The notes beneath the pieces were generated by a model that had not been told where the DNA came from, did no database searches, and worked only from the letters and a program-made list of their open reading frames with translations. A stretch of 64,000 nucleotides of DNA from Azospirillum sp. GTDB taxonomy: Bacteria; Pseudomonadota; Alphaproteobacteria; Azospirillales; Azospirillaceae. The DNA is taken from contig JAVBJZ010000007.1 in assembly GCA_031546725.1 (NCBI GenBank), positions 788 through 64,787 of the forward strand. The letters run 5' to 3'. The translations under genes and the position numbers were made by a program. Shown here one piece after another: positions 48,932 through 58,350 of the stretch (position 1 is its first letter; each line of letters begins with the position of its first letter).

Positions 48932-49137
48932 GGCGCTGTTCCTCATATCGCGTGAGAGCGCCGAGGCTGACAGAACGAATTGCGAACTTCAAGCGTTAAG
49001 TTTCCTCTGTGTTCCCTATATCACCCCTTCTTGTGCCTGCATCCGCCATACCCCCTCGATGTGAGAGGAACGCCTGCGCTGCTGGCCGGACCTTCAACCA
49101 CGGGGTAACGAACTTTGCTGCAATGCGGCGGCCAATC

Positions 49138-49187
49138 TGGCATGCCATTTTGTCGTATCCTGCCATAATGGCATTGCGAAAATGCCG
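49138..49187. promoter_or_regulatory. candidate enhancer (UAS) for a sigma54 activator
   Basis: TGCCATTTTGTCG (49143), TGCCATAATGGCA (49161, palindrome), TGCGAAAATGCCG (49175); TGGCATGCCA palindrome at 49138. Confidence 0.5.
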
Positions 49188-49242: not shown

Positions 49243-49258
49243 TGGCCCGGAACTTGCT
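49243..49258 (+). promoter_or_regulatory. sigma54 (-24/-12) promoter
   Basis: TGGCCCGGAACTTGCT: GG-N10-GC spacing, 1 mismatch to TGGCAC-N5-TTGCW; a sigma54 activator is encoded in the same locus. Confidence 0.75.
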
Positions 49259-49294: not shown

Positions 49295-49546
49295 ATGACC
49301 GTGACGAGAAAGACAATATTGGTTTTGGCAGCCGTACTGGCTGTAGGGGTGATGGCTGATGGAGCTCGGGCTGCTGCGGATGCGCAGCCGGCGCAGGCCA
49401 TCAAAGCAACGACCGCGAACCCCACCAAGGTCGTGGACAATCCCGTCGCGACGCACACCCCCTGGTACACGCCAGCGGGCCGGCGCGGGATGCCCGCACC
49501 CTATGATCTGAAGAACCGGGTCACCGGGTTGCCCCCGCAAAAATAA
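49295..49546 (+). CDS. small secreted protein of unknown function
   Basis: Sec-type signal (RKTILVLAAVLAVGVMADGARA), AGGAG RBS at 49279-83, first gene after the sigma54 promoter. Confidence 0.7.
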   Translation: MTVTRKTILVLAAVLAVGVMADGARAAADAQPAQAIKATTANPTKVVDNPVATHTPWYTPAGRRGMPAPYDLKNRVTGLPPQK

Positions 49547-49667
49547 GTTCTGGCCTCTGATCCCTCGGGAAACACTGGCCATTTCTGCGGTTCCAACCGC
49601 CCATCAACAACAGATCTCGTGCTCCATCGAGACACCAATCCTACGACTGTCAAAAGAAAGATTTATC

Positions 49668-49967
<300 letters not shown>

Positions 49968-49979
49968 TTCTTCCTATTG

Positions 49980-50010
49980 GGGCGGCCTCAATCGAGGCCG
50001 CCCTTTGTTT
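49980..50010 (+). terminator. Rho-independent terminator between the Met-rich peptide and the cytochrome gene
   Basis: GGGCGGCCTC-AATC-GAGGCCGCCC followed by TTTGTTT. Confidence 0.8.
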
Positions 50011-50033
50011 CACTCCGTAACAACGGGTGTGCG

Positions 50034-50867
50034 ATGAACGTCGGGAGACTGCTCTCCGCCGCGATGGGGCTGTTGCTGTGTGGTGCAGCGATACCGGCCA
50101 CCGCCGCTGACTATCAGCGTGAAGTTTGGTCGCCTCTGCACTTGGCGCCAAACACCGCGAAAGCTACAAATGCTGAATGTCTTGCTTGCCACAGCGAGAT
50201 TCTACAAGACAAGATCCGCGAAGTCTCGCCAGCTGGCAAGAAAACATCGGATATAGGCCCGACGTGGTACCAGACTCTGGACACGTACAAGGGGACGCAG
50301 GAAACTTTCCATGCCCGGCATTTGACGACTGCTTATGCCAAGAAGGTTATGGACCTGAAGTGTTCGACCTGCCACACCGGCCATGACCCACGCGAAGAGT
50401 CCATGGCGCGCCCGCGGGTTGAAAAACAGGATGGCAAATGGACCGCCATTCCCGTTGAGACGACATTCCGCTTGCGCAAGCAGGTCAACCCCGAGACCAC
50501 ATGCCTCATGTGCCACGGGAAATTCCCGTTCGAGAACATGAGCCTGCCGGACGAGTGGTCGAAGATTCGGACCGACATGGAAAATGAGGACGCCAAGAAT
50601 GGCTGTCTGACCTGCCATGCCGAGCAAACCCGCACGAACCGTCACCAGGTCACTTATCTGAAGGCCGCGAACATCGAGAAGCTGGCAAAGGATGATTCCG
50701 ACGTTTGCTATGGCTGCCACGGCGGCCGTGCTTGGTATCGGCTGTCCTTCCCGTATCCGCGTCACGATTGGCCGGATATGCCCGCTGACGTTCCCGACTG
50801 GGCTACGGACCGGCCCAAGCAATCCGAAGCTCGATTCCGGCTGGATGCAGGGACCGCCAAGCACTGA
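50034..50867 (+). CDS. periplasmic pentaheme cytochrome c
   Basis: Signal peptide (ATA-AD); five CxxCH motifs: CLACH, CSTCH, CLMCH, CLTCH, CYGCH; no TM anchor. Confidence 0.9.
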   Translation: MNVGRLLSAAMGLLLCGAAIPATAADYQREVWSPLHLAPNTAKATNAECLACHSEILQDKIREVSPAGKKTSDIGPTWYQTLDTYKGTQETFHARHLTTAYAKKVMDLKCSTCHTGHDPREESMARPRVEKQDGKWTAIPVETTFRLRKQVNPETTCLMCHGKFPFENMSLPDEWSKIRTDMENEDAKNGCLTCHAEQTRTNRHQVTYLKAANIEKLAKDDSDVCYGCHGGRAWYRLSFPYPRHDWPDMPADVPDWATDRPKQSEARFRLDAGTAKH

Positions 50868-50885
50868 CGCCAGAGGAAACTCATT

Positions 50886-53429
50886 ATGATTAAAATCGAT
50901 CGGAAGGACCTTCTGGCGCGTGCTCTTGAATTGTCGCGTCGCGACTTGTTCAAGGTAAGCGCCGGAGCCGGCGCCGCCGCCGCCACGGGGTTGACGCCGT
51001 TGCGGCCCGCTCATGGTTTTGCTTACGAGCCCTACCCCAAGGACGATGAGCTCACCACGGTGGTGACGTCGTGCGCGCATAATTGCGGTTCGCGCCATAT
51101 GCTGGTGGCGCACAAGAAGGGGGATGTCATCGTCCGTTTGTCCACGGATGATGGCCGCGCTCAGGGTGACGCCTACGGGACCGACACGGCGGAAACGCCT
51201 CAGTTGCGGGCATGTCTGCGTGGACGGTCGTATCGTTCGCGTCTCTACAGCCCCGAGCGGTTGCTCTACCCCATGGTGCGGACGGGTGAGCGCGGCGAGG
51301 GTAAGTTCAAGCGGGTCTCCTGGGATCTGGCGCTGGACCTGATTGCCGAAAAGATGGTCCGGCTGAAGGAAAAATACGGCCCGACGGCGATTCTCGATCA
51401 ATCCTACGCCGGCGCGTCCTACGGCGTTCTGCACAAGTCGGATCAGATCGAAGGGCTGCTGGCCCGCTTCCTTGGTATCTTCGGCTGCCGCACCAGCTCC
51501 TGGTCGGTGCCCAGCTACCAGGGAACCACCTTCAGCTCCCGCATCACCTACGGCACCATCGAGGACGGCAACGAAGACGACGCCTTCGCCCACTCGAAGC
51601 TGATCATCATGTGGGGATGGAACCCGGCCTATACGTTCCACGGCGGCAACACCCACTGGTACATGCGCACAGCCAAACAGAATGGCTGCAAGTTCGTCGT
51701 CGTCGATCCCCAGTACACGGATGCGGCTGCGGCTTATGACGCCTGGTGGATCCCCATCAAGCCGAATACCGACGCGGCCATGATGGCCGGGATGGCGTAT
51801 TATATTTTTGTCAATGAACTGCAGGATCAGCAGTTCATCGCCCGCTTCTGCCAGGGCGTCGATCCCAGCACCATGCCGGGCTGGGCTCAGGGTAAGGAAA
51901 GCTTCAAGGAATACATCCTCGGCATGTCCGATGGTGTGCCCAAGACCCCGCAATGGGCCGCGGCCATTTGCGGTGTTCCGGCGGAAACCATCGCCAAGCT
52001 GGCGCATATGTACGCCGCGACCAAGCCGGCGGCTCTCAAGGCGTCGTGGGCTCCGGGCCGTAACGCCTATGGCGAGCAGTACAACCGTATGGCGGCCGCC
52101 CTGCAGGCGATCACCGGCAACATCGGTAAGCTCGGCGGTTGCGCTGAAGGCGTGGGCAAGGGCTGGCATTCCGAAGGCGTGGCCTACCCCTACGACGAGT
52201 ATTCGAACGTCTGGTATGCCGCGATCAAGTCTGACCGCTGGGCCCATTGCGTCCTCAACTACCCCAATGTCAAGCGTGAAGAGATTGGCTGTTGGGAGCG
52301 GAGCGATGCGCTGGACGGGAAGATTCCAGACATCCGGGGCATCTGGTGGCATGGTTCCAACTGGTTCAACCAGCTGACCAACATCAACAAAGAAATCGAA
52401 GCCATCAAGAAGCTGGATTTCGTGGTGTGCAATGACGCCACACTCACCAGCTCGGCGCTCTTTGCTGATTTCGTGCTGCCGGCCTGCACCCACTTTGAAC
52501 GGCACGATGTGGCGTTGCCCTGGTACAAGGGGCACTACTACATCCATCGTCCCAAAGTCATCGAGCCCTTGGGCGAAAGCCGCACCGACTTCCAGATCTT
52601 CACCGAACTGGCCTACCGTCTTGGCTATGGCGAGAAGTATAACCCACGCTCCAAGCGGGATTACTTCTATGACAACGAAGCCACGGACGAAGCCTATCTG
52701 AAGACGTGGTGGGAAGAAAAGGTGATGCACCATCAAGGCGTCACCGTGGGTTGGGAAGAGTTCAAGAGCAAGGGCGTCCACAAGTTCAAGTTCGACAAAC
52801 CGCATGTGGCTTTTCGTGCTCAGATCGAAGACGGCGTGCCGTTCCAGACCGCGTCTGGTAAGATTGAAATCCTATCGACCAGCCTGGCCAACATCACGGA
52901 TTGGACCAAGACCCGGTATGGTTATCCCATCCCGGCCATTCCCAAATGGATCGAACCGTGGGAATCCTTGAACCATCCCAAGGCCAAGGACTTCCCCTTC
53001 CATCTCGTCAGCCCGCACCCGCGTTGGCGGACCCACTCGATCTTCAACAACATTCCGTGGCTGCGGGAGACTTTTGAACAGGAAGTCACCATCAACGCAT
53101 CCGACGCCGCCAAGCTGGGGATCAACACCGGCGATACGGTGGAGTTGTGGAACGATCGCGGCAAAACCGTGGTCCCCGTCTATGTCACCGAGCGGTGCAT
53201 GCCCGGCGTTCTGGTCCTGCACGAAGGTGCGTGGCTGGACATGGTTGACGGCGTTGATCGAGCCGGCAACCCGGATGTCCTGACCAAGGATGATCCCAGT
53301 CCGGCAGGGGCTTTCGCCTACAACACCGTTCTGTGCAACATCCGCAAGACCGACCTGGACCACCATCCCGGCTGGGACAAGACCGTAACCGCCCGCGCCG
53401 CCAAATGGCGGCGCGACACCAGAGCTTGA
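50886..53429 (+). CDS. DmsA-clade molybdopterin oxidoreductase catalytic subunit (Tat-exported)
   Basis: Tat motif SRRDLFK; C63-x3-C67-x3-H71...RAC110LRGRS; Ser210 aligns with the E. coli DmsA Mo-ligand Ser; PIKPNTDAAM, ADFVLP, RTHS motifs. Confidence 0.93.
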   Translation: MIKIDRKDLLARALELSRRDLFKVSAGAGAAAATGLTPLRPAHGFAYEPYPKDDELTTVVTSCAHNCGSRHMLVAHKKGDVIVRLSTDDGRAQGDAYGTDTAETPQLRACLRGRSYRSRLYSPERLLYPMVRTGERGEGKFKRVSWDLALDLIAEKMVRLKEKYGPTAILDQSYAGASYGVLHKSDQIEGLLARFLGIFGCRTSSWSVPSYQGTTFSSRITYGTIEDGNEDDAFAHSKLIIMWGWNPAYTFHGGNTHWYMRTAKQNGCKFVVVDPQYTDAAAAYDAWWIPIKPNTDAAMMAGMAYYIFVNELQDQQFIARFCQGVDPSTMPGWAQGKESFKEYILGMSDGVPKTPQWAAAICGVPAETIAKLAHMYAATKPAALKASWAPGRNAYGEQYNRMAAALQAITGNIGKLGGCAEGVGKGWHSEGVAYPYDEYSNVWYAAIKSDRWAHCVLNYPNVKREEIGCWERSDALDGKIPDIRGIWWHGSNWFNQLTNINKEIEAIKKLDFVVCNDATLTSSALFADFVLPACTHFERHDVALPWYKGHYYIHRPKVIEPLGESRTDFQIFTELAYRLGYGEKYNPRSKRDYFYDNEATDEAYLKTWWEEKVMHHQGVTVGWEEFKSKGVHKFKFDKPHVAFRAQIEDGVPFQTASGKIEILSTSLANITDWTKTRYGYPIPAIPKWIEPWESLNHPKAKDFPFHLVSPHPRWRTHSIFNNIPWLRETFEQEVTINASDAAKLGINTGDTVELWNDRGKTVVPVYVTERCMPGVLVLHEGAWLDMVDGVDRAGNPDVLTKDDPSPAGAFAYNTVLCNIRKTDLDHHPGWDKTVTARAAKWRRDTRA

Positions 53430-53446
53430 TGTGAGGGGTGGCGAGA

Positions 53447-54121
53447 ATGACGACCCAGCCCAAATCGAAGATGGAACTTCGGCAAGCGGCTCAAAAAGCT
53501 GTCGAAGACCGTAAGACCTACACGCCCGTGGTGCCCAAAGAGCAGTTCGGTTTCATCCACAACAATGTGGAATGCATCGGCTGCCGGGCCTGCGAGATTG
53601 CGTGCAAGGATAAGAACGGCCTGCCACCCGGTCCGCGGTTCCGCCGCGTGCTGTATGTGGAAGGCGGGACTTTCCCTGAGGTCTATGCCTACAAGGTCAA
53701 TCTGTCTTGCAACCATTGCGCCGAACCGGCGTGCTTGCCGACCTGCCCCACCGGGGCGATCACCAAGCGGGCCGACAATGGCGTGGTGGACATCGACTCC
53801 ACCTTGTGTATCGGGTGTCGCCGGTGTGAGGCGGCCTGTCCTTATGGGGCCCCGCAGTGGGATCCTGAGGCGCAGGTCATTAAAAAGTGCAACATGTGCA
53901 TCGATGAACTCGATGCTGGCCGCAAACCCTATTGCGTTATGGCCTGCATGATGCGCGTGTTGGACATTGGTCCTATCGACCAGCTGCGGGAGGGAACATA
54001 CCCAACCAAGGCCATGGGGCCGAATGACAAGCCGGTTCGTCGTGTCAAGGACATGTCGAATCCGGAACTGACCAACGCCTCGATTGTGTTCATCGCCCAT
54101 CCGAAAGCCCGAGTAGACTAA
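53447..54121 (+). CDS. DmsB-like 4x[4Fe-4S] electron transfer subunit
   Basis: CIGCRACEIAC, CNHCAEPACLPTCP, CIGCRRCEAACP, CNMC...CVMAC. Confidence 0.94.
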   Translation: MTTQPKSKMELRQAAQKAVEDRKTYTPVVPKEQFGFIHNNVECIGCRACEIACKDKNGLPPGPRFRRVLYVEGGTFPEVYAYKVNLSCNHCAEPACLPTCPTGAITKRADNGVVDIDSTLCIGCRRCEAACPYGAPQWDPEAQVIKKCNMCIDELDAGRKPYCVMACMMRVLDIGPIDQLREGTYPTKAMGPNDKPVRRVKDMSNPELTNASIVFIAHPKARVD

Positions 54122-54837
54122 TGGTTGAAGCCGCCGAGTTAGAGGTTAGCCTGCGTCATGCCATCGCTGCCGATTTGGAAATGTTGGCGGCCATACATGA
54201 TCGCGAGCCAGACGCCGAGATGGTGGGGGTGTTGCAAAGCAGCAAATTCCCACTCTGCTTGACCCTTCCCCTCGATGATCCCGAGGCGGTGGTGGCCGGG
54301 CAAGTCATGGCGGCGATCCTCGACTCATTCGGTTCCGCATTGTCCGCCGAGGACGCCGACGAATTGGCGGCGTCCTACGCGGATGTTTATCTGCTCAACG
54401 GGTGCGGCTGTTCTCCCTATGCCTCACCGTGGCTGGATAAAGACGGGCTGGTGCGCCAGGAACCCATGCTTGACGTGCGGGCCTGGTTTGCCCGTCATCA
54501 CTTGCGCGTGCCCGACTCAGCGCTGCGTGCTGATGATCATTTGTCCATGCTTTTGCTTTTCCTGGCTCATCTGATCCGCTCGGGGGACGAGAAAGCGGGG
54601 GACGAGAAAACGGGAGAGGTGGAAGCCGCCGAATTCCTCAGCCGCTATGTGACGAATTGGCTTCCCTCTTTCGCCAAAGCGCTGGTCAGTCGGCATGGCC
54701 CTCCCTTCTATGCGGCTTTGGCGGTCCTGACCTCGGCCTATACCGAGGCGTTGGCCGCCCTGCTCCCTGAAGTGGAGGTTCCCGTGGCGGCTCCGCCGGA
54801 GCCGGTCTGCGCGCCTCGTGATCATGTGCATTTTTAA
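54121..54837 (+). CDS. TorD/DmsD family molybdoenzyme chaperone
   Basis: SPYASPWL, DDHLSMLLLFLAHL, FL..Y...WLPSF, FYAALA.LT. Confidence 0.9.
   Translation: MVEAAELEVSLRHAIAADLEMLAAIHDREPDAEMVGVLQSSKFPLCLTLPLDDPEAVVAGQVMAAILDSFGSALSAEDADELAASYADVYLLNGCGCSPYASPWLDKDGLVRQEPMLDVRAWFARHHLRVPDSALRADDHLSMLLLFLAHLIRSGDEKAGDEKTGEVEAAEFLSRYVTNWLPSFAKALVSRHGPPFYAALAVLTSAYTEALAALLPEVEVPVAAPPEPVCAPRDHVHF
54583..54612. repeat. 15-bp in-frame duplication in the chaperone gene (GDEKA/GDEKT)
   Basis: GGGGACGAGAAAGCG / GGGGACGAGAAAACG. Confidence 0.8.
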
Positions 54838-54920
54838 AGGCCAGACGTAAATTCTGAAGACTGAGCATAGACAGGCCAACACCAAGTACTATCCATCCTA
54901 TTCATCGTGAATCTATTTGT

Positions 54921-54969
54921 TTACAGCGGATTTCAGTTCAGCTTGAACCGAAATCCGCTGTAATTTTTT
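54921..54969 (+). terminator. long-stem Rho-independent terminator ending the oxidoreductase operon
   Basis: TTACAGCGGATTTC...GAAATCCGCTGTAA perfect 14-bp stem plus inner GTTCA/TGAAC, followed by TTTTTT. Confidence 0.85.
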
Positions 54970-55111
54970 GCCCGCCCTTCAAGATGAAGGCTTTTTTACT
55001 TAATGCACAGGATGCAAGCATATAAGGCTTGAATCCATCCGGCTCGATCGCGGTAGACTCGAAAACTCCGGCAGATCTTTCCCGGCTGATTTTTCAAGGT
55101 GGTGTCACGTT

Positions 55112-57007
55112 ATGGGATCGTGGGTAACCGCAAGGTTGGGGCGGGTTTTTGGCTTTGCTCTCGGGCTTGTGTTGTTGTCGGCGCTGCTGGTGTTTCTGGC
55201 GCTGTTCATCGGGGCCTATCAGTGGCAGATCGGGCATGAGCGCACCCGGCTGTCGGAACAGACGGCGCTGTTGTTGCAGGCGGCGCTGGAGAACGCCATG
55301 CTGAAGCGTGACCTGCCCGGTCTGCAAACGATCGTCGATCGCTTGGGACAGCAGGAAGGGGTTCGGCAGGTTCTCATCGTCAATCCCAGCGGAGAGGTGC
55401 GGTTCGCCTCCAACCGCCAGATGCTCAATCATCATTTCCTGACCGACAATGATTCCGGGTGCCGGGAATGCCATCAACAGAACACGGCGCGTGGCCGGAC
55501 ACTGTTTATGGTGGATAAAAACGGGCAAGAGGTTTTGCGCGGCGTCGATCCCGTCCGCAATCGGGAGCCGTGCCAACAATGCCACGGCCCGTTGAGCGAA
55601 CACCCGATCAACGGCGTTTTGATCATCGATTATGACGCCGCGGCCATTCGGACGACGGCGCTGCATGGCGCGCTGGCCTTTTTAGGGGCGGGGGCCATGG
55701 TGGTTCTGCTGGTGACCACGACGCTGTGGTGGCTGTTGCGCCGCCGGGTTCTTGACCGGCTGGAGGTGTTGGGGGCGGCCAACCGCGCCGTCGAAAGGGG
55801 CGTGCTGGACGTTCGGGTTCCCGAGGACGGCAGGGATGAAATCGCTGATCTCGCCCGCGGCTTCAATGAGATGACCGAGACGTTGCGCGCCCGCATGCGC
55901 GACATCCGTGACCGTGAAGCCTTCCTCCAGGCGATGATCGACGCCGTGCCCGATGGATTGCGTGTCATCGCCGCCAACAGCATGATCGTGACGGCGAACC
56001 GCACCTACCGTCGTCAATTGGGTCTGGATGACAGCCAGCCGTTGGCGGGCCAGACCTGCTACAACTCCAGCCACGGCGCTTCCGAGCCCTGTCCTCCCAC
56101 CCTGATCGCCTGCCCGCTGAATATTCTGGCTCGTGAAAAAGAGCCGCTGAAGACCGTGCATCAGCATATCCGCCGGGATGGCTCCACCGTCCATATGGAA
56201 GTCTACGCCGCCCCCATGATGCTGGAACAACAGGGGCGGGAGAGCTTTTATGTGGTCGAATCCATCCGTGATCTTAGCGAGGATATACGTTTTTCCCACG
56301 GGCAGAAGCTGTCTTCCGTCGGGCAGTTGGCGGCGGGGGTCGCCCATGAGATCCGCAACCCGCTCGCATCGATCCGCCTGGCTTTGGAAGGGCTGCTCCG
56401 CGATATCGAAGCCGGCGGGACCAGCGCTGAGGTTTTGACCTATTTACGGCTGGTGGATGGCCAGATCGACAAATGCATCGATGTCAGCAACCGCTTGCTA
56501 AAGCTTTCCGCCGTCGGGGGAGAGCAAAAGACCCTTGTGGATATTGGGCAAGCGGTTGAGGAAACCCTCTCCTTGGTTCACTGGCATGCCGAAACCTTGG
56601 GCATTGAGATTATCTTCACCCCCGATCCCAGTTCTCCCCGGATTTTGGCGGTGGATGGCGATGTGCGGATGGTGGCGTTGAATCTGATCCAGAATTCCTT
56701 TCATTCCATGCCCACGGGCGGTCGCCTGCTGGTCGATGTCCGTTCCGACGCCAAGCAGGTGGCGCTGATTGTCACGGACACCGGGGTGGGCATAAAACCC
56801 GAGTATCGCCGCCACATTTTTGAGCCATTCTTCAGTCATCGCGCCGACACCGAACAAGGAACGGGTTTGGGCCTGGCTATTTGCAAGAGCATCGTTGAAG
56901 GATTGTCCGGCTCCATTCACGTGGAAAGCCAACCGGGACAAGGCGCTTGCTTCACCGTCCTGTTTCCATCAGCGGAAGCAGCCATGGCTGCGGAGAATCG
57001 GGTATGA
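55112..57007 (+). CDS. sensor histidine kinase with periplasmic di-heme c motifs, HAMP and Cys-containing PAS
   Basis: TM1-periplasm (CRECH, CQQCH)-TM2-HAMP-PAS; H-box AHEIRNPL; N, G1 (DTGVGI), F and G2 (GTGLGL) boxes. Confidence 0.93.
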   Translation: MGSWVTARLGRVFGFALGLVLLSALLVFLALFIGAYQWQIGHERTRLSEQTALLLQAALENAMLKRDLPGLQTIVDRLGQQEGVRQVLIVNPSGEVRFASNRQMLNHHFLTDNDSGCRECHQQNTARGRTLFMVDKNGQEVLRGVDPVRNREPCQQCHGPLSEHPINGVLIIDYDAAAIRTTALHGALAFLGAGAMVVLLVTTTLWWLLRRRVLDRLEVLGAANRAVERGVLDVRVPEDGRDEIADLARGFNEMTETLRARMRDIRDREAFLQAMIDAVPDGLRVIAANSMIVTANRTYRRQLGLDDSQPLAGQTCYNSSHGASEPCPPTLIACPLNILAREKEPLKTVHQHIRRDGSTVHMEVYAAPMMLEQQGRESFYVVESIRDLSEDIRFSHGQKLSSVGQLAAGVAHEIRNPLASIRLALEGLLRDIEAGGTSAEVLTYLRLVDGQIDKCIDVSNRLLKLSAVGGEQKTLVDIGQAVEETLSLVHWHAETLGIEIIFTPDPSSPRILAVDGDVRMVALNLIQNSFHSMPTGGRLLVDVRSDAKQVALIVTDTGVGIKPEYRRHIFEPFFSHRADTEQGTGLGLAICKSIVEGLSGSIHVESQPGQGACFTVLFPSAEAAMAAENRV

Positions 57008-58350
57008 CACGGCGTATCCTGGTTATTGAAGATGACGCCATCCTCAATACTTTGCTGTGCAACCATCTGACCCGCGTCGGCTATGACGCCAGCGCGGCGC
57101 GGCGCTGGAGCGAAGCCGAGGCTTGGCTTGCCGCCGAATCCGCCGACCTCATCATCCTGGATGTCAATCTTCCCGACGCCGACGGCCTGGAAATGCTGCC
57201 GCATCTGGCGCCGCATCAACCGGTGATCATTCTCACCGCCTATGGATCGGTGCAGACCGCTGTCCGGGCGGTCAAAGCCGGCGCCGCCGAATATTTGGTC
57301 AAGCCCATCAACATCGATGAGCTGGAAGTCGTGGTCAGCCGCGCCATCGAAATGGCCACCATCAAACGGGAACACAGCTTCATCAAAGACCGGCTGGCGG
57401 TGCGCCCGGATAATTTGATGGTGGGAGCCGGGCGTGGGATCAGCGAGGTCCGCCGGTTGATCGAGGCGGTGGCGCCCTCGGACATGACGGTCTTGATCCA
57501 GGGCGAAAGCGGCGCTGGAAAAGAACTGGTGGCCCAGGCGATCCATGCCCGCTCCAAGCGGGACCGGCATACCTTTGTGGCGGTGGATTGCTGCACCTTG
57601 CAACGGACCTTGTTCGAGTCCGAACTGTTCGGTCACGAAAAAGGGGCGTTTACCGGGGCCGATCGGCAAAAGAAAGGGCTGATCGAGGGGGCCGAGGACG
57701 GGACCCTGTTTCTCGACGAAATCGGCGAAATCGAACCGGCCATCCAAGCCAAACTGTTGCGCGTCCTGGAAACCGGGCGCTACCGACGGCTGGGAGGAAC
57801 CAAGGATCTCAGCGCCAATGTCCGCATTGTCGCCGCGACCAACCGAGACTTAGCGGCGATGAGCCGGGATGGCCAGTTCCGACCGGATTTATTCTACCGC
57901 TTGAACGGCTTCGTCATCCATGTCCCCCCCCTGCGTGAGCGGCGCGAGGATATTTCTCAACTGGCGCAACATTTTGTCCGCAATCATGATTTTTCTCGTC
58001 GAATCAACAAGGAAATTTCTCAGTCAGCGCTTGATGTTCTCAAGAAATACAATTGGCCCGGCAACATCCGGGAATTAAGGAATTTTGTTGAGCGCGCCAT
58101 TATTTTATCAGGGGATGCAGAAATAATAGGTGAGGAATTTTTTTCTTTCCATGGACCTCAAAAATCATCTCAGCCAACAACTGAAGTTATGGATATTTTT
58201 GCCAATGATCCCCCATTGGAAGAGATAGAACGCTATTATATTGCTTATCTTCTGAAGAAATACGGTGGGCATCGGTCCTTGGTTGCGCAAAAACTGGGGA
58301 TCAGCGAGCGGAATATCTATCGGCTGATTCGCCGTTATGAGCTGGACTGA
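57004..58350 (+). CDS. sigma54-dependent (NtrC family) response regulator
   Basis: REC (EDD, ILDVNLP), [31 protein letters not shown], Fis HTH. ATGA-coupled to the kinase. Confidence 0.95.

Follow-up and report, generated by a model that had tools for sequence, protein, structure and literature searches.

The gene considered here lies in a stretch of 64,000 nucleotides (nt) of Azospirillum sp. DNA (contig JAVBJZ010000007.1; the whole stretch is called the window, and coordinates are positions in it) and encodes a membrane-bound sensor histidine kinase. With a probability of about 0.6, this kinase senses redox state or oxidants through a periplasmic heme, takes a second input in the cytoplasm from a metal or iron-sulfur (Fe-S) centre, and drives a neighboring operon for a methionine-rich protein, a pentaheme cytochrome and a DmsAB-like reductase. 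Conservation counts refer to an alignment of 137 non-identical family members. The features of the kinase gene were:

55112..57007, + strand: sensor histidine kinase gene, 631 amino acids (aa), an uninterrupted open reading frame with the order TM1, sCache_heme-like domain, TM2, HAMP, PAS, HisKA, HATPase_c
55145..55219, + strand: first transmembrane helix (TM1), residues ~12-36 (hydropathy)
55220..55669, + strand: periplasmic domain of single-Cache fold with heme motifs, residues 37-186 (AlphaFold2, Foldseek, profile)
55298..55300, + strand: codon of M63, candidate labile distal axial ligand (conserved in 137/137; PF21563 spacing)
55460..55474, + strand: first CXXCH, CRECH, residues 117-121, a clade-specific candidate second heme site in the variable beta2-beta3 loop
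55571..55585, + strand: second CXXCH, CQQCH, residues 154-158, with H158 the predicted proximal ligand (invariant; aligned with the CXXCH of GSU0582/GSU0935)
55658..55735, + strand: second transmembrane helix (TM2), residues ~183-208 (hydropathy)
55733..55891, + strand: HAMP, residues 208-260 (Pfam PF00672, E = 1.5e-11)
55895..56305, + strand: cytoplasmic PAS, residues 262-398, LOV/FixL-like fold (AlphaFold2 predicted local distance difference test, pLDDT, 91.6; Foldseek; Pfam PAS, PAS_4 and PAS_9)
56057..56116, + strand: C316-x4-H321-x5-C327-x6-C334-P335, candidate metal or Fe-S site (helix E-alpha, loop, start of F-alpha)
56321..56509, + strand: HisKA, the dimerization and histidine phosphotransfer (DHp) domain, with phospho-acceptor H412 at nt 56345-56347 (Pfam, conservation)
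56663..56971, + strand: HATPase_c catalytic domain (Pfam; N, G1 and G2 boxes invariant)

The CRECH and CQQCH motifs contained the only four Cys between TM1 and TM2, and the domain that carries them lay between the hydrophobic helices 12-36 and 183-208, an extracytoplasmic location. When the kinase was shuffled 20,000 times, one CXXCH occurred in 0.3% of the shuffles and two in none; a chance origin of the pair is negligible, and conservation in the alignment, in which C154, C157, H158, C316, C327 and C334 are invariant, confirmed selection. The original prediction, made from the letters of the sequence, had placed CRECH and CQQCH between the two transmembrane helices, as translation and hydropathy confirmed, and a Cys cluster in the cytoplasmic PAS domain, where TCYNSSHGASEPCPPTLIACP was indeed present with C316, C327 and C334 inside the Pfam PAS match (271-390).

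The AlphaFold2 model of the periplasmic domain (22 sequences; mean pLDDT 80.7) consisted of a five-stranded sheet and two helices, the N-terminal one being long. Foldseek against the PDB returned the Cache domains of WalK, DctB, CitA, KinD and DcuS (E = 3e-7 to 1e-3) and the Geobacter heme-c domains GSU0935 (E = 7.6e-5) and GSU0582, model and matches both giving a single-Cache (PDC) fold. The family profile matched exactly two chains of the PDB, 3b47 and 3b42 of Geobacter (E ~0.01), and strand-P-x2-N-x3-CxxCH aligned with them residue by residue. Against Pfam, the window domain scored 23 bits with PF21563 (cutoff 27) and 14.8 with PF11845 (cutoff 24.1). Both PF11845 (DUF3365, Tll0287-like) and PF21563 (GSU0582/0935 family) were matched by 21 of 22 relatives, always below threshold (best E-values for the PF21563/PF11845 pair 3.5e-5 and 8.5e-6), and sCache_3_2 by 14 of 22. 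As the scores were sub-threshold, the domain was filed as a divergent relative and not as a curated sCache_heme member; by profile alignment and predicted fold it is a divergent member of the sCache_heme family of heme-c Cache domains. This group was defined in a 2026 preprint, with CXXCH 99% conserved, heme incorporated by use of the Ccm (cytochrome c maturation) system, and heme binding as its defining, experimentally demonstrated feature (PMC12889525).

In the model, CQQCH was on a short helix (152-158) between the last two strands. The PF21563 alignment began at M63, matched to profile position 11, and ended at G159 (position 96), so that M63 and H158 are 84 profile positions apart, as are Met60 and His144 of GSU0935. 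In GSU0935, His144 is a heme ligand and Met60, in the N-terminal helix, a reversible one that is lost on oxidation or on binding of nitric oxide (NO) or CO (PMC8396549). M63 was inside the invariant helix LENAMLKRDL, continuous with TM1. From this homology, CQQCH, H158 and M63 are inferred to form a canonical sensing heme, which would be attached through CQQCH and ligated by M63; M63, which is invariant and probably its labile axial ligand, had not figured in the original prediction.

When the sensor half of the kinase (residues 36-400) was used to search 5.8 billion proteins, more than 488 relatives were found, the top 120 being 41-58% identical across the whole sensor region. These were unnamed kinases of Gamma-, Beta- and Alphaproteobacteria, including Competibacter, Thiobacillaceae, Rhodocyclaceae, Thiolapillus, Magnetospirillum, Thiodiazotropha and Chromatiaceae. 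C154, C157, H158, M63, N150, R143, R97, D173, N167 and G168 were invariant. One full-length kinase and regulator relative (L005, DATGZW010000114.1) was on a contig labelled 'Patescibacteria group bacterium', which suggests a binning error, a c-type-heme, sigma-54 system being implausible in Patescibacteria. Five further proteins (P0188, P0201, P0219, P0222 and P0237) had the same PAS (FLQxLIDAxPDGxRVID ... VESIRDL) and core with an N-terminal part lacking CXXCH, and may be relatives with another periplasmic sensor.

The first CXXCH was far more variable. It was CxxCH in 34 of the 137 relatives, CxxC without His in 47 (followed by L, P, D, E, S or other residues) and C-x4-C in 2, and there was no motif in the 54 others, in which the loop was shorter. 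Relatives from Burkholderiaceae and Arenimonas had C-x4-C at the place of the first CXXCH loop (CVTAGC and CLTAGC; L021:1275-1748 and L022:2516-2959). Mapped on a tree made without those alignment columns, the four states needed at least 17 changes, and CxxCH occurred in at least 7 separate clades; the window's own clade (8 sequences) was uniformly CxxCH. Judged by conservation, only the second CXXCH (CQQCH) is family-defining. A second heme, if attached, would be accessory, with no identifiable sixth ligand in the alignment, and not essential, since the first motif was lost repeatedly; its role might be to widen the range of redox sensing or to accept electrons from the pentaheme cytochrome. 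In four annotated loci, the class of first motif showed no pattern with operon content (e.g., an extra poly-ferredoxin gene). The 'two heme motifs' of the original prediction thus held for the window protein and about one-quarter of its relatives, not as a family-wide feature; its periplasmic covalent-heme input was borne out by homology to proven heme-c sensor domains, aligned at CQQCH, and its 'di-heme' was not upheld as an essential feature.

The modelled PAS domain had a standard PAS fold, closest by Foldseek to short LOV, FixL and DosP (template modeling score ~0.68). C316 started helix E-alpha, C327 was in the next loop, a 5-residue insertion relative to LOV, and C334-P335 started F-alpha. 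In hidden Markov model alignments C316 coincided with the flavin-adduct Cys of LOV; from this position and the E-alpha/F-alpha location, the motif therefore appears to line the classical cofactor pocket, its geometry being taken from secondary structure and alignment only. C316, C327 and C334 were conserved in 137/137 relatives, P335 in 136/137 and H321 in 121/137, several of the exceptions to H321 having a His at 317 instead. The second, cytoplasmic site that had been proposed from the letters is in fact a separate conserved Cys site in the PAS pocket, going by alignment, model and its presence in 137/137.

The same motif was not confined to this family. The PAS profile, searched against 1.84 billion representative proteins, gave 277 proteins at E ≤ 1e-30. 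Among the top 147, which were inspected, 113 had a Cys triad of the same spacing, and 63 of these 113 were without a periplasmic CXXCH; about 50 of the 63 were multi-PAS kinases unrelated to this family and as long as 2,600 aa, and the remainder look like truncated or variant members of the window kinase family. The consensus in the CXXCH-free proteins was G-x-x-C-Y-x-x-S/T-H-x4-P-C-x6-C-P-L-x-E. In motif-bearing PAS domains only 22-30% identical to the window PAS, N296, C316, H321, C327, C334, P335 and D387 were invariant, and H350 and H352 were at least 90% conserved, compared with only ~55-60% within the kinase family. Pfam placed all motif-bearing PAS domains in generic PAS families. No PDB chain carried the Cys3His motif, profile searches of the PDB returning the PAS domains of LOV, FixL, DosP and WalK, and no structure, cofactor assignment or dedicated family model was found for this variant.

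Three Cys hold a [4Fe-4S] cluster in the PAS domain of OrpR (C-x8-C-x3-C; PMC8359166) and a [2Fe-2S] cluster in that of Bacillus licheniformis NreB (C-x2-C-x11-C; PMC13478379). Since these clusters are in the same PAS region, an Fe-S centre in the window PAS is a reasonable guess, and by analogy the site is most likely a metal or Fe-S centre. It may also be a redox switch of the Zn(Cys)3(His) type, or bind heme b through the Cys-Pro motif. The window PAS had neither the NreB motif C-x2-C-x11-C(-x2-C) nor the OrpR motif C-x8-C-x3-C, and resembles them in the location of the Cys in the PAS fold only.

The output half of the kinase was that of a class I HisKA kinase, with HisKA at 404-466 and HATPase_c at 518-620 (Pfam), H412 within HEIRNPL, and N524/N528, D556-G558-G560 and G583-G587 invariant. 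The positive residues of the N-terminus fit an inside orientation, and a Shine-Dalgarno-like AAGGTGG precedes the ATG. Thiol-based redox sites have been proposed for RegB or ArcB, and C455 (nt 56474-56476; DKCIDV, in the DHp/HisKA helix), kept in 132/137 relatives, may be a further such site.

The partner and the presumed target of the kinase were encoded on both sides of it:

49130..49173, + strand: three TGNCA-N3-TGNCA palindromes (those at 49130 and 49143 with one mismatch each, that at 49161 perfect)
49243..49258, + strand: sigma-54 -24/-12 promoter TGGCCCGGAACTTGCT (TGGC-N7-TTGC), upstream of the first operon gene
49295..54837, + strand: target operon, six genes on the same strand upstream of the kinase
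54921..54999, + strand: two intrinsic-terminator-like hairpins between operon and kinase
57004..58350, + strand: sigma-54-dependent response regulator (REC D53; AAA+ with GAFTGA at 214; Fis-type helix-turn-helix)

The regulator had the receiver Asp, the GAFTGA and the C-terminal helix-turn-helix (HTH_8 at 424-464) of the NtrC type, and its start overlapped the kinase stop (ATGA), the two genes being translationally coupled. The operon began with the gene for a small secreted protein, followed by those for a Met-rich protein, a pentaheme cytochrome c, a DmsA-like subunit, a DmsB-like subunit and a TorD-like chaperone. The Met-rich protein had a signal peptide, (MSGMGG)n repeats and 26% Met; the catalytic subunit was a molybdenum subunit of the DmsA/YnfE family with a twin-arginine translocation (Tat) signal, and its partner a DmsB-type Fe-S subunit.

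Synteny was sampled in 23 kinase-relative loci, of which 19 came from GTDB genomes and four from metagenome or genome contigs. The regulator was directly 3' of the kinase in 23/23 loci and the reductase operon adjoined the kinase in 16/23; the other 7 were cut by contig ends or had ≤3.4 kb of upstream DNA, two of them with a Met-rich open reading frame at the contig edge. In the loci read in detail, the operon was accompanied by proteins of 16-29% Met. Equivalent -24/-12 elements preceded the operon in most relatives, with one to three palindromes ~80-160 bp beyond them. Perfect palindromes numbered 36 in 24 sequences, compared with 4.6 expected from shuffling, and almost all were in intergenic regions upstream of the operon. 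Control of the operon by the two-component pair, which had been proposed earlier as acting from the 49243 promoter, is strongly supported by conserved synteny, the sigma-54 partner, the -24/-12 promoters and the palindromes; as judged from these sequence features, the kinase most likely switches the operon on.

Between operon and kinase, a hairpin of -26.7 kcal/mol was followed by a T-run and by a second hairpin (54976-54990), and no palindrome or -24/-12 element was present at 54838-55111. Because of the terminator-like hairpins, kinase and regulator most likely form a separate transcription unit. In five loci in which the operon was divergent from the kinase (L003:9865, L007:9841, L011:9775, L012:1842 and L018:9843, minus strand), a pair of sigma-54 promoters was present, both of them accompanied by palindromes of their own, one facing a gene for a DGS-x-LL repeat protein beside the kinase and the other the small-protein and Met-rich genes.

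The first operon gene (49295-49546), for the small secreted protein, had no family match. Its relatives (L002:2317-2631, L003:8370-8654 and L004:3502-4014) shared ...WY..ALTG...PYP.SL.FL..QG.W.TPF..PGMTG.YD.RGWH, and the window copy was more diverged (PWYTPAGRRGMPAPYD). After the chaperone gene, many relatives had an additional gene for a Cys-rich protein like a poly-ferredoxin (310-378 aa, 24-25 Cys; L001:2480-3538, L002:8778-9914 and L003:614-1546) and a gene for a 170-aa protein; the window was without both and had terminators at that place instead. An invertebrate-gut metatranscriptome (run X1) contained an exact 216-nt contig of the 5' part of the Met-rich gene (49569-49784) and a 185-nt piece of the regulator gene (57293-57477) with 3 differences, from which the organism or a close relative was transcriptionally active in that sample; otherwise, the runs found through the Met-repeat gene gave repeat-driven matches only.

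In the proposed mechanism, the kinase would be a dimer in the membrane, with heme c on C154/C157, H158 as proximal ligand and M63, on the helix continuing from TM1, as an exchangeable distal ligand, as Met60 is in GSU0935. A second heme would probably be carried on C117/C120/H121 in the variable loop of the window protein and of about one-quarter of its relatives. Oxidants in the periplasm, or its redox poise, would change the oxidation or ligation of the heme and displace M63, and the helix shift would pass through TM1/TM2, HAMP and PAS to the kinase core. The Cys triad and H321 of the PAS domain would hold a metal or Fe-S centre that serves, on the cytoplasmic side, as the second redox input or as a gate. 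The kinase would then phosphorylate the co-translated sigma-54 activator at D53, which would bind TGNCA-N3-TGNCA at 49130-49173, open the sigma-54 promoter at 49243 and induce the Met-rich protein, the pentaheme cytochrome and the DmsAB-like reductase.

What the signal is and which cofactor the PAS domain holds are both deduced, and for the signal being an oxidant or redox change the chance is put at just short of even. Oxidant or redox sensing is favored by the nature of the operon and by the precedent of the Met switch of Escherichia coli HprS/YedV, which controls the periplasmic Met-sulfoxide reductase msrPQ and is reset by MsrP (bioRxiv 2021.09.09.459708). A bolder version is a long shot: M63 would be both axial ligand and chemical sensor, its oxidation by oxidants such as hypochlorous acid (HOCl) or chlorite to a non-ligating sulfoxide locking the kinase on until the DmsAB-like reductase resets it, and the Cys3His PAS would be an unrecognised, widespread LOV-derived class with its flavin pocket rebuilt for an Fe-S or metal centre.

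Several results weigh against the proposed reading. Neither the window domain nor its relatives reached a gathering-score match to the heme-Cache Pfam families. The loop of the first CXXCH was modelled with low confidence (pLDDT 63-69), per-class column statistics over the 137 relatives gave no His or Met specific to CxxCH-bearing sequences, and the first CXXCH is, by its distribution, dispensable in most relatives. Zn with a structural role only might occupy the PAS site. No public sequencing run covers the kinase, one metatranscriptome holding a fragment of the regulator gene only. Finally, the characterised signalling sCache_heme receptor acts as a sensor of NO, not of oxidants (PMC12889525).

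A kinase with one functional input can be argued, in which the first CXXCH is vestigial or structural (a disulfide-type CxxC loop whose His is kept here by chance), the PAS Cys bind structural Zn and the protein is an ordinary mono-heme sCache_heme kinase. It would account for the 75% of relatives without an intact first CXXCH, the CxxC without His in 47 of them, the repeated changes of state on the tree and the lack of a class-specific distal ligand, and Cys3His is a classical set of Zn ligands. An accessible periplasmic CXXCH is, however, normally a substrate for heme attachment by Ccm, the window clade retained CxxCH throughout, and the PAS motif, located in a cofactor pocket and kept across domains 22-30% identical, was conserved beyond what is usual for a structural site; a single input is considered somewhat unlikely. 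Sensing of NO, which on the heme would displace M63 or H158 and make the operon a response to nitrosative or peroxynitrite stress instead of to redox poise or to chlorine or oxygen oxidants, has its precedent in the sCache_heme receptor of P. azotoformans, which releases bound NO slowly, as NO sensors typically do, and forms no stable complex with O2 (PMC12889525), and in GSU0582/GSU0935, which share fold and motif with the window domain and bind NO and CO in place of Met60 (PMC8396549). Against it, the operon had no recognisable NO-detoxifying gene, its hallmark, a protein about one-quarter to one-third Met together with an S-oxide-type reductase, points to Met oxidation, and the functional analogue HprS responds to HOCl and not to NO (bioRxiv 2021.09.09.459708); NO as the signal is considered unlikely.

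Less probable again is a respiratory redox or anoxia sensor free of any stress sensing, whose reduced, Met-ligated heme would report a reduced periplasm and induce the DmsAB-like enzyme to serve as terminal reductase under anaerobic conditions. GSU0582 and GSU0935 have been proposed to sense redox potential, their spin state and ligation changing upon reduction (PMC8396549), the catalytic subunit belongs to the respiratory DmsA/YnfE family, and an Fe-S PAS would suit control by O2 or redox, as in NreB and OrpR (PMC13478379, PMC8359166). The operon, however, was without a quinol-oxidising membrane anchor, and simple respiration leaves the constant company of very Met-rich secreted proteins unexplained. 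The dual-input redox or oxidant sensor is preferred to each of these readings.

The system that the kinase is proposed to control is widespread, uncharacterised and periplasmic, and is made up of a poly-methionine protein and a DmsAB-cytochrome reductase that has no anchor. Since the kinase is its only conserved regulator, finding the signal of the sensor would lead most directly to what the system does physiologically. With predicted two-heme, one-heme plus CxxC, and one-heme relatives, the family is a natural series for dissecting heme-Cache signalling, and the window kinase points to the Cys3His PAS variant in many multi-PAS kinases.

Among known regulatory systems, PcrS/PcrR of the perchlorate reduction island of Azospira suillum is alike in pairing a membrane kinase with a sigma-54 regulator and in having as its target the operon of a periplasmic enzyme of the dimethyl sulfoxide (DMSO)-reductase family with cytochrome and chaperone. 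The periplasmic domain of PcrS differs, being ~250 aa long and unrelated, with no heme motif reported, and PcrS is without a PAS domain, a separate protein, PcrP, carrying one (PMC3884062). PcrS was rejected as a homologue of the window kinase, its periplasmic domain being unrelated and a PAS domain lacking (PMC3884062). HprSR (YedVW/HypVW) of E. coli is likewise a two-component system that switches on a periplasmic molybdoenzyme, one that reduces Met sulfoxide; sensing is proposed to occur through periplasmic Met, with the sensor reset by the induced reductase. The HprS sensor domain, however, is not homologous and has neither heme nor PAS, HprR is OmpR-type and not sigma-54-dependent, and the enzyme is MsrP, of sulfite-oxidase fold, not DmsAB.

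OrpR (Desulfovibrio vulgaris) and NreB (Bacillus licheniformis/Staphylococcus) resemble the window kinase in the three conserved Cys of the PAS E-alpha/F-alpha region, which in them hold a redox- or ligand-sensitive Fe-S cluster, and OrpR also acts in a sigma-54 system. The motif of the window PAS, C-x4-H-x5-C-x6-CP, differs from theirs, and there was no detectable specific sequence relationship, NreB not being returned by the profile searches of the PDB. The best matches to the window PAS in both sequence and fold were LOV domains (PpSB1-LOV, YtvA and LOV histidine kinases), C316 being at the flavin-adduct Cys and H352 at the position of a flavin-binding Asn. The NCRFLQ-type motif and the flavin-binding Arg, Asn and Gln of photosensory LOV domains were absent, in contrast, the window sequence being TCYNSSHG with a pocket lined by Cys and His; of that motif, only the position of the Cys is shared.

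The periplasmic domain is closest to those of the Geobacter sulfurreducens chemoreceptors GSU0582/GSU0935 (PDB 3B47, 3B42) and of the P. azotoformans Cache_heme-HAMP receptor, with which it shares an extracytoplasmic single-Cache fold joined through a transmembrane helix and HAMP to a signalling output; with the two Geobacter domains it also shares a CXXCH on a short helix after a P-x2-N strand and an N-terminal-helix Met at the Met60-His144 spacing from the proximal His. It differs in its sub-gathering Pfam scores, in the optional second CXXCH on the beta2-beta3 loop, in the HAMP-PAS(Cys3His)-kinase output paired with a sigma-54 regulator, and in belonging to a subfamily dedicated to one operon type. 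Heme-c Cache sensors are reportedly known from Geobacter since 2008, and there is nothing unusual in molybdoenzyme operons being controlled by sigma-54 two-component systems. New are the divergent, operon-dedicated heme-Cache subfamily that escapes the Pfam thresholds, its apparent optional second heme site, and its coupling to a widespread Cys3His PAS variant that has neither a classification nor a structure.

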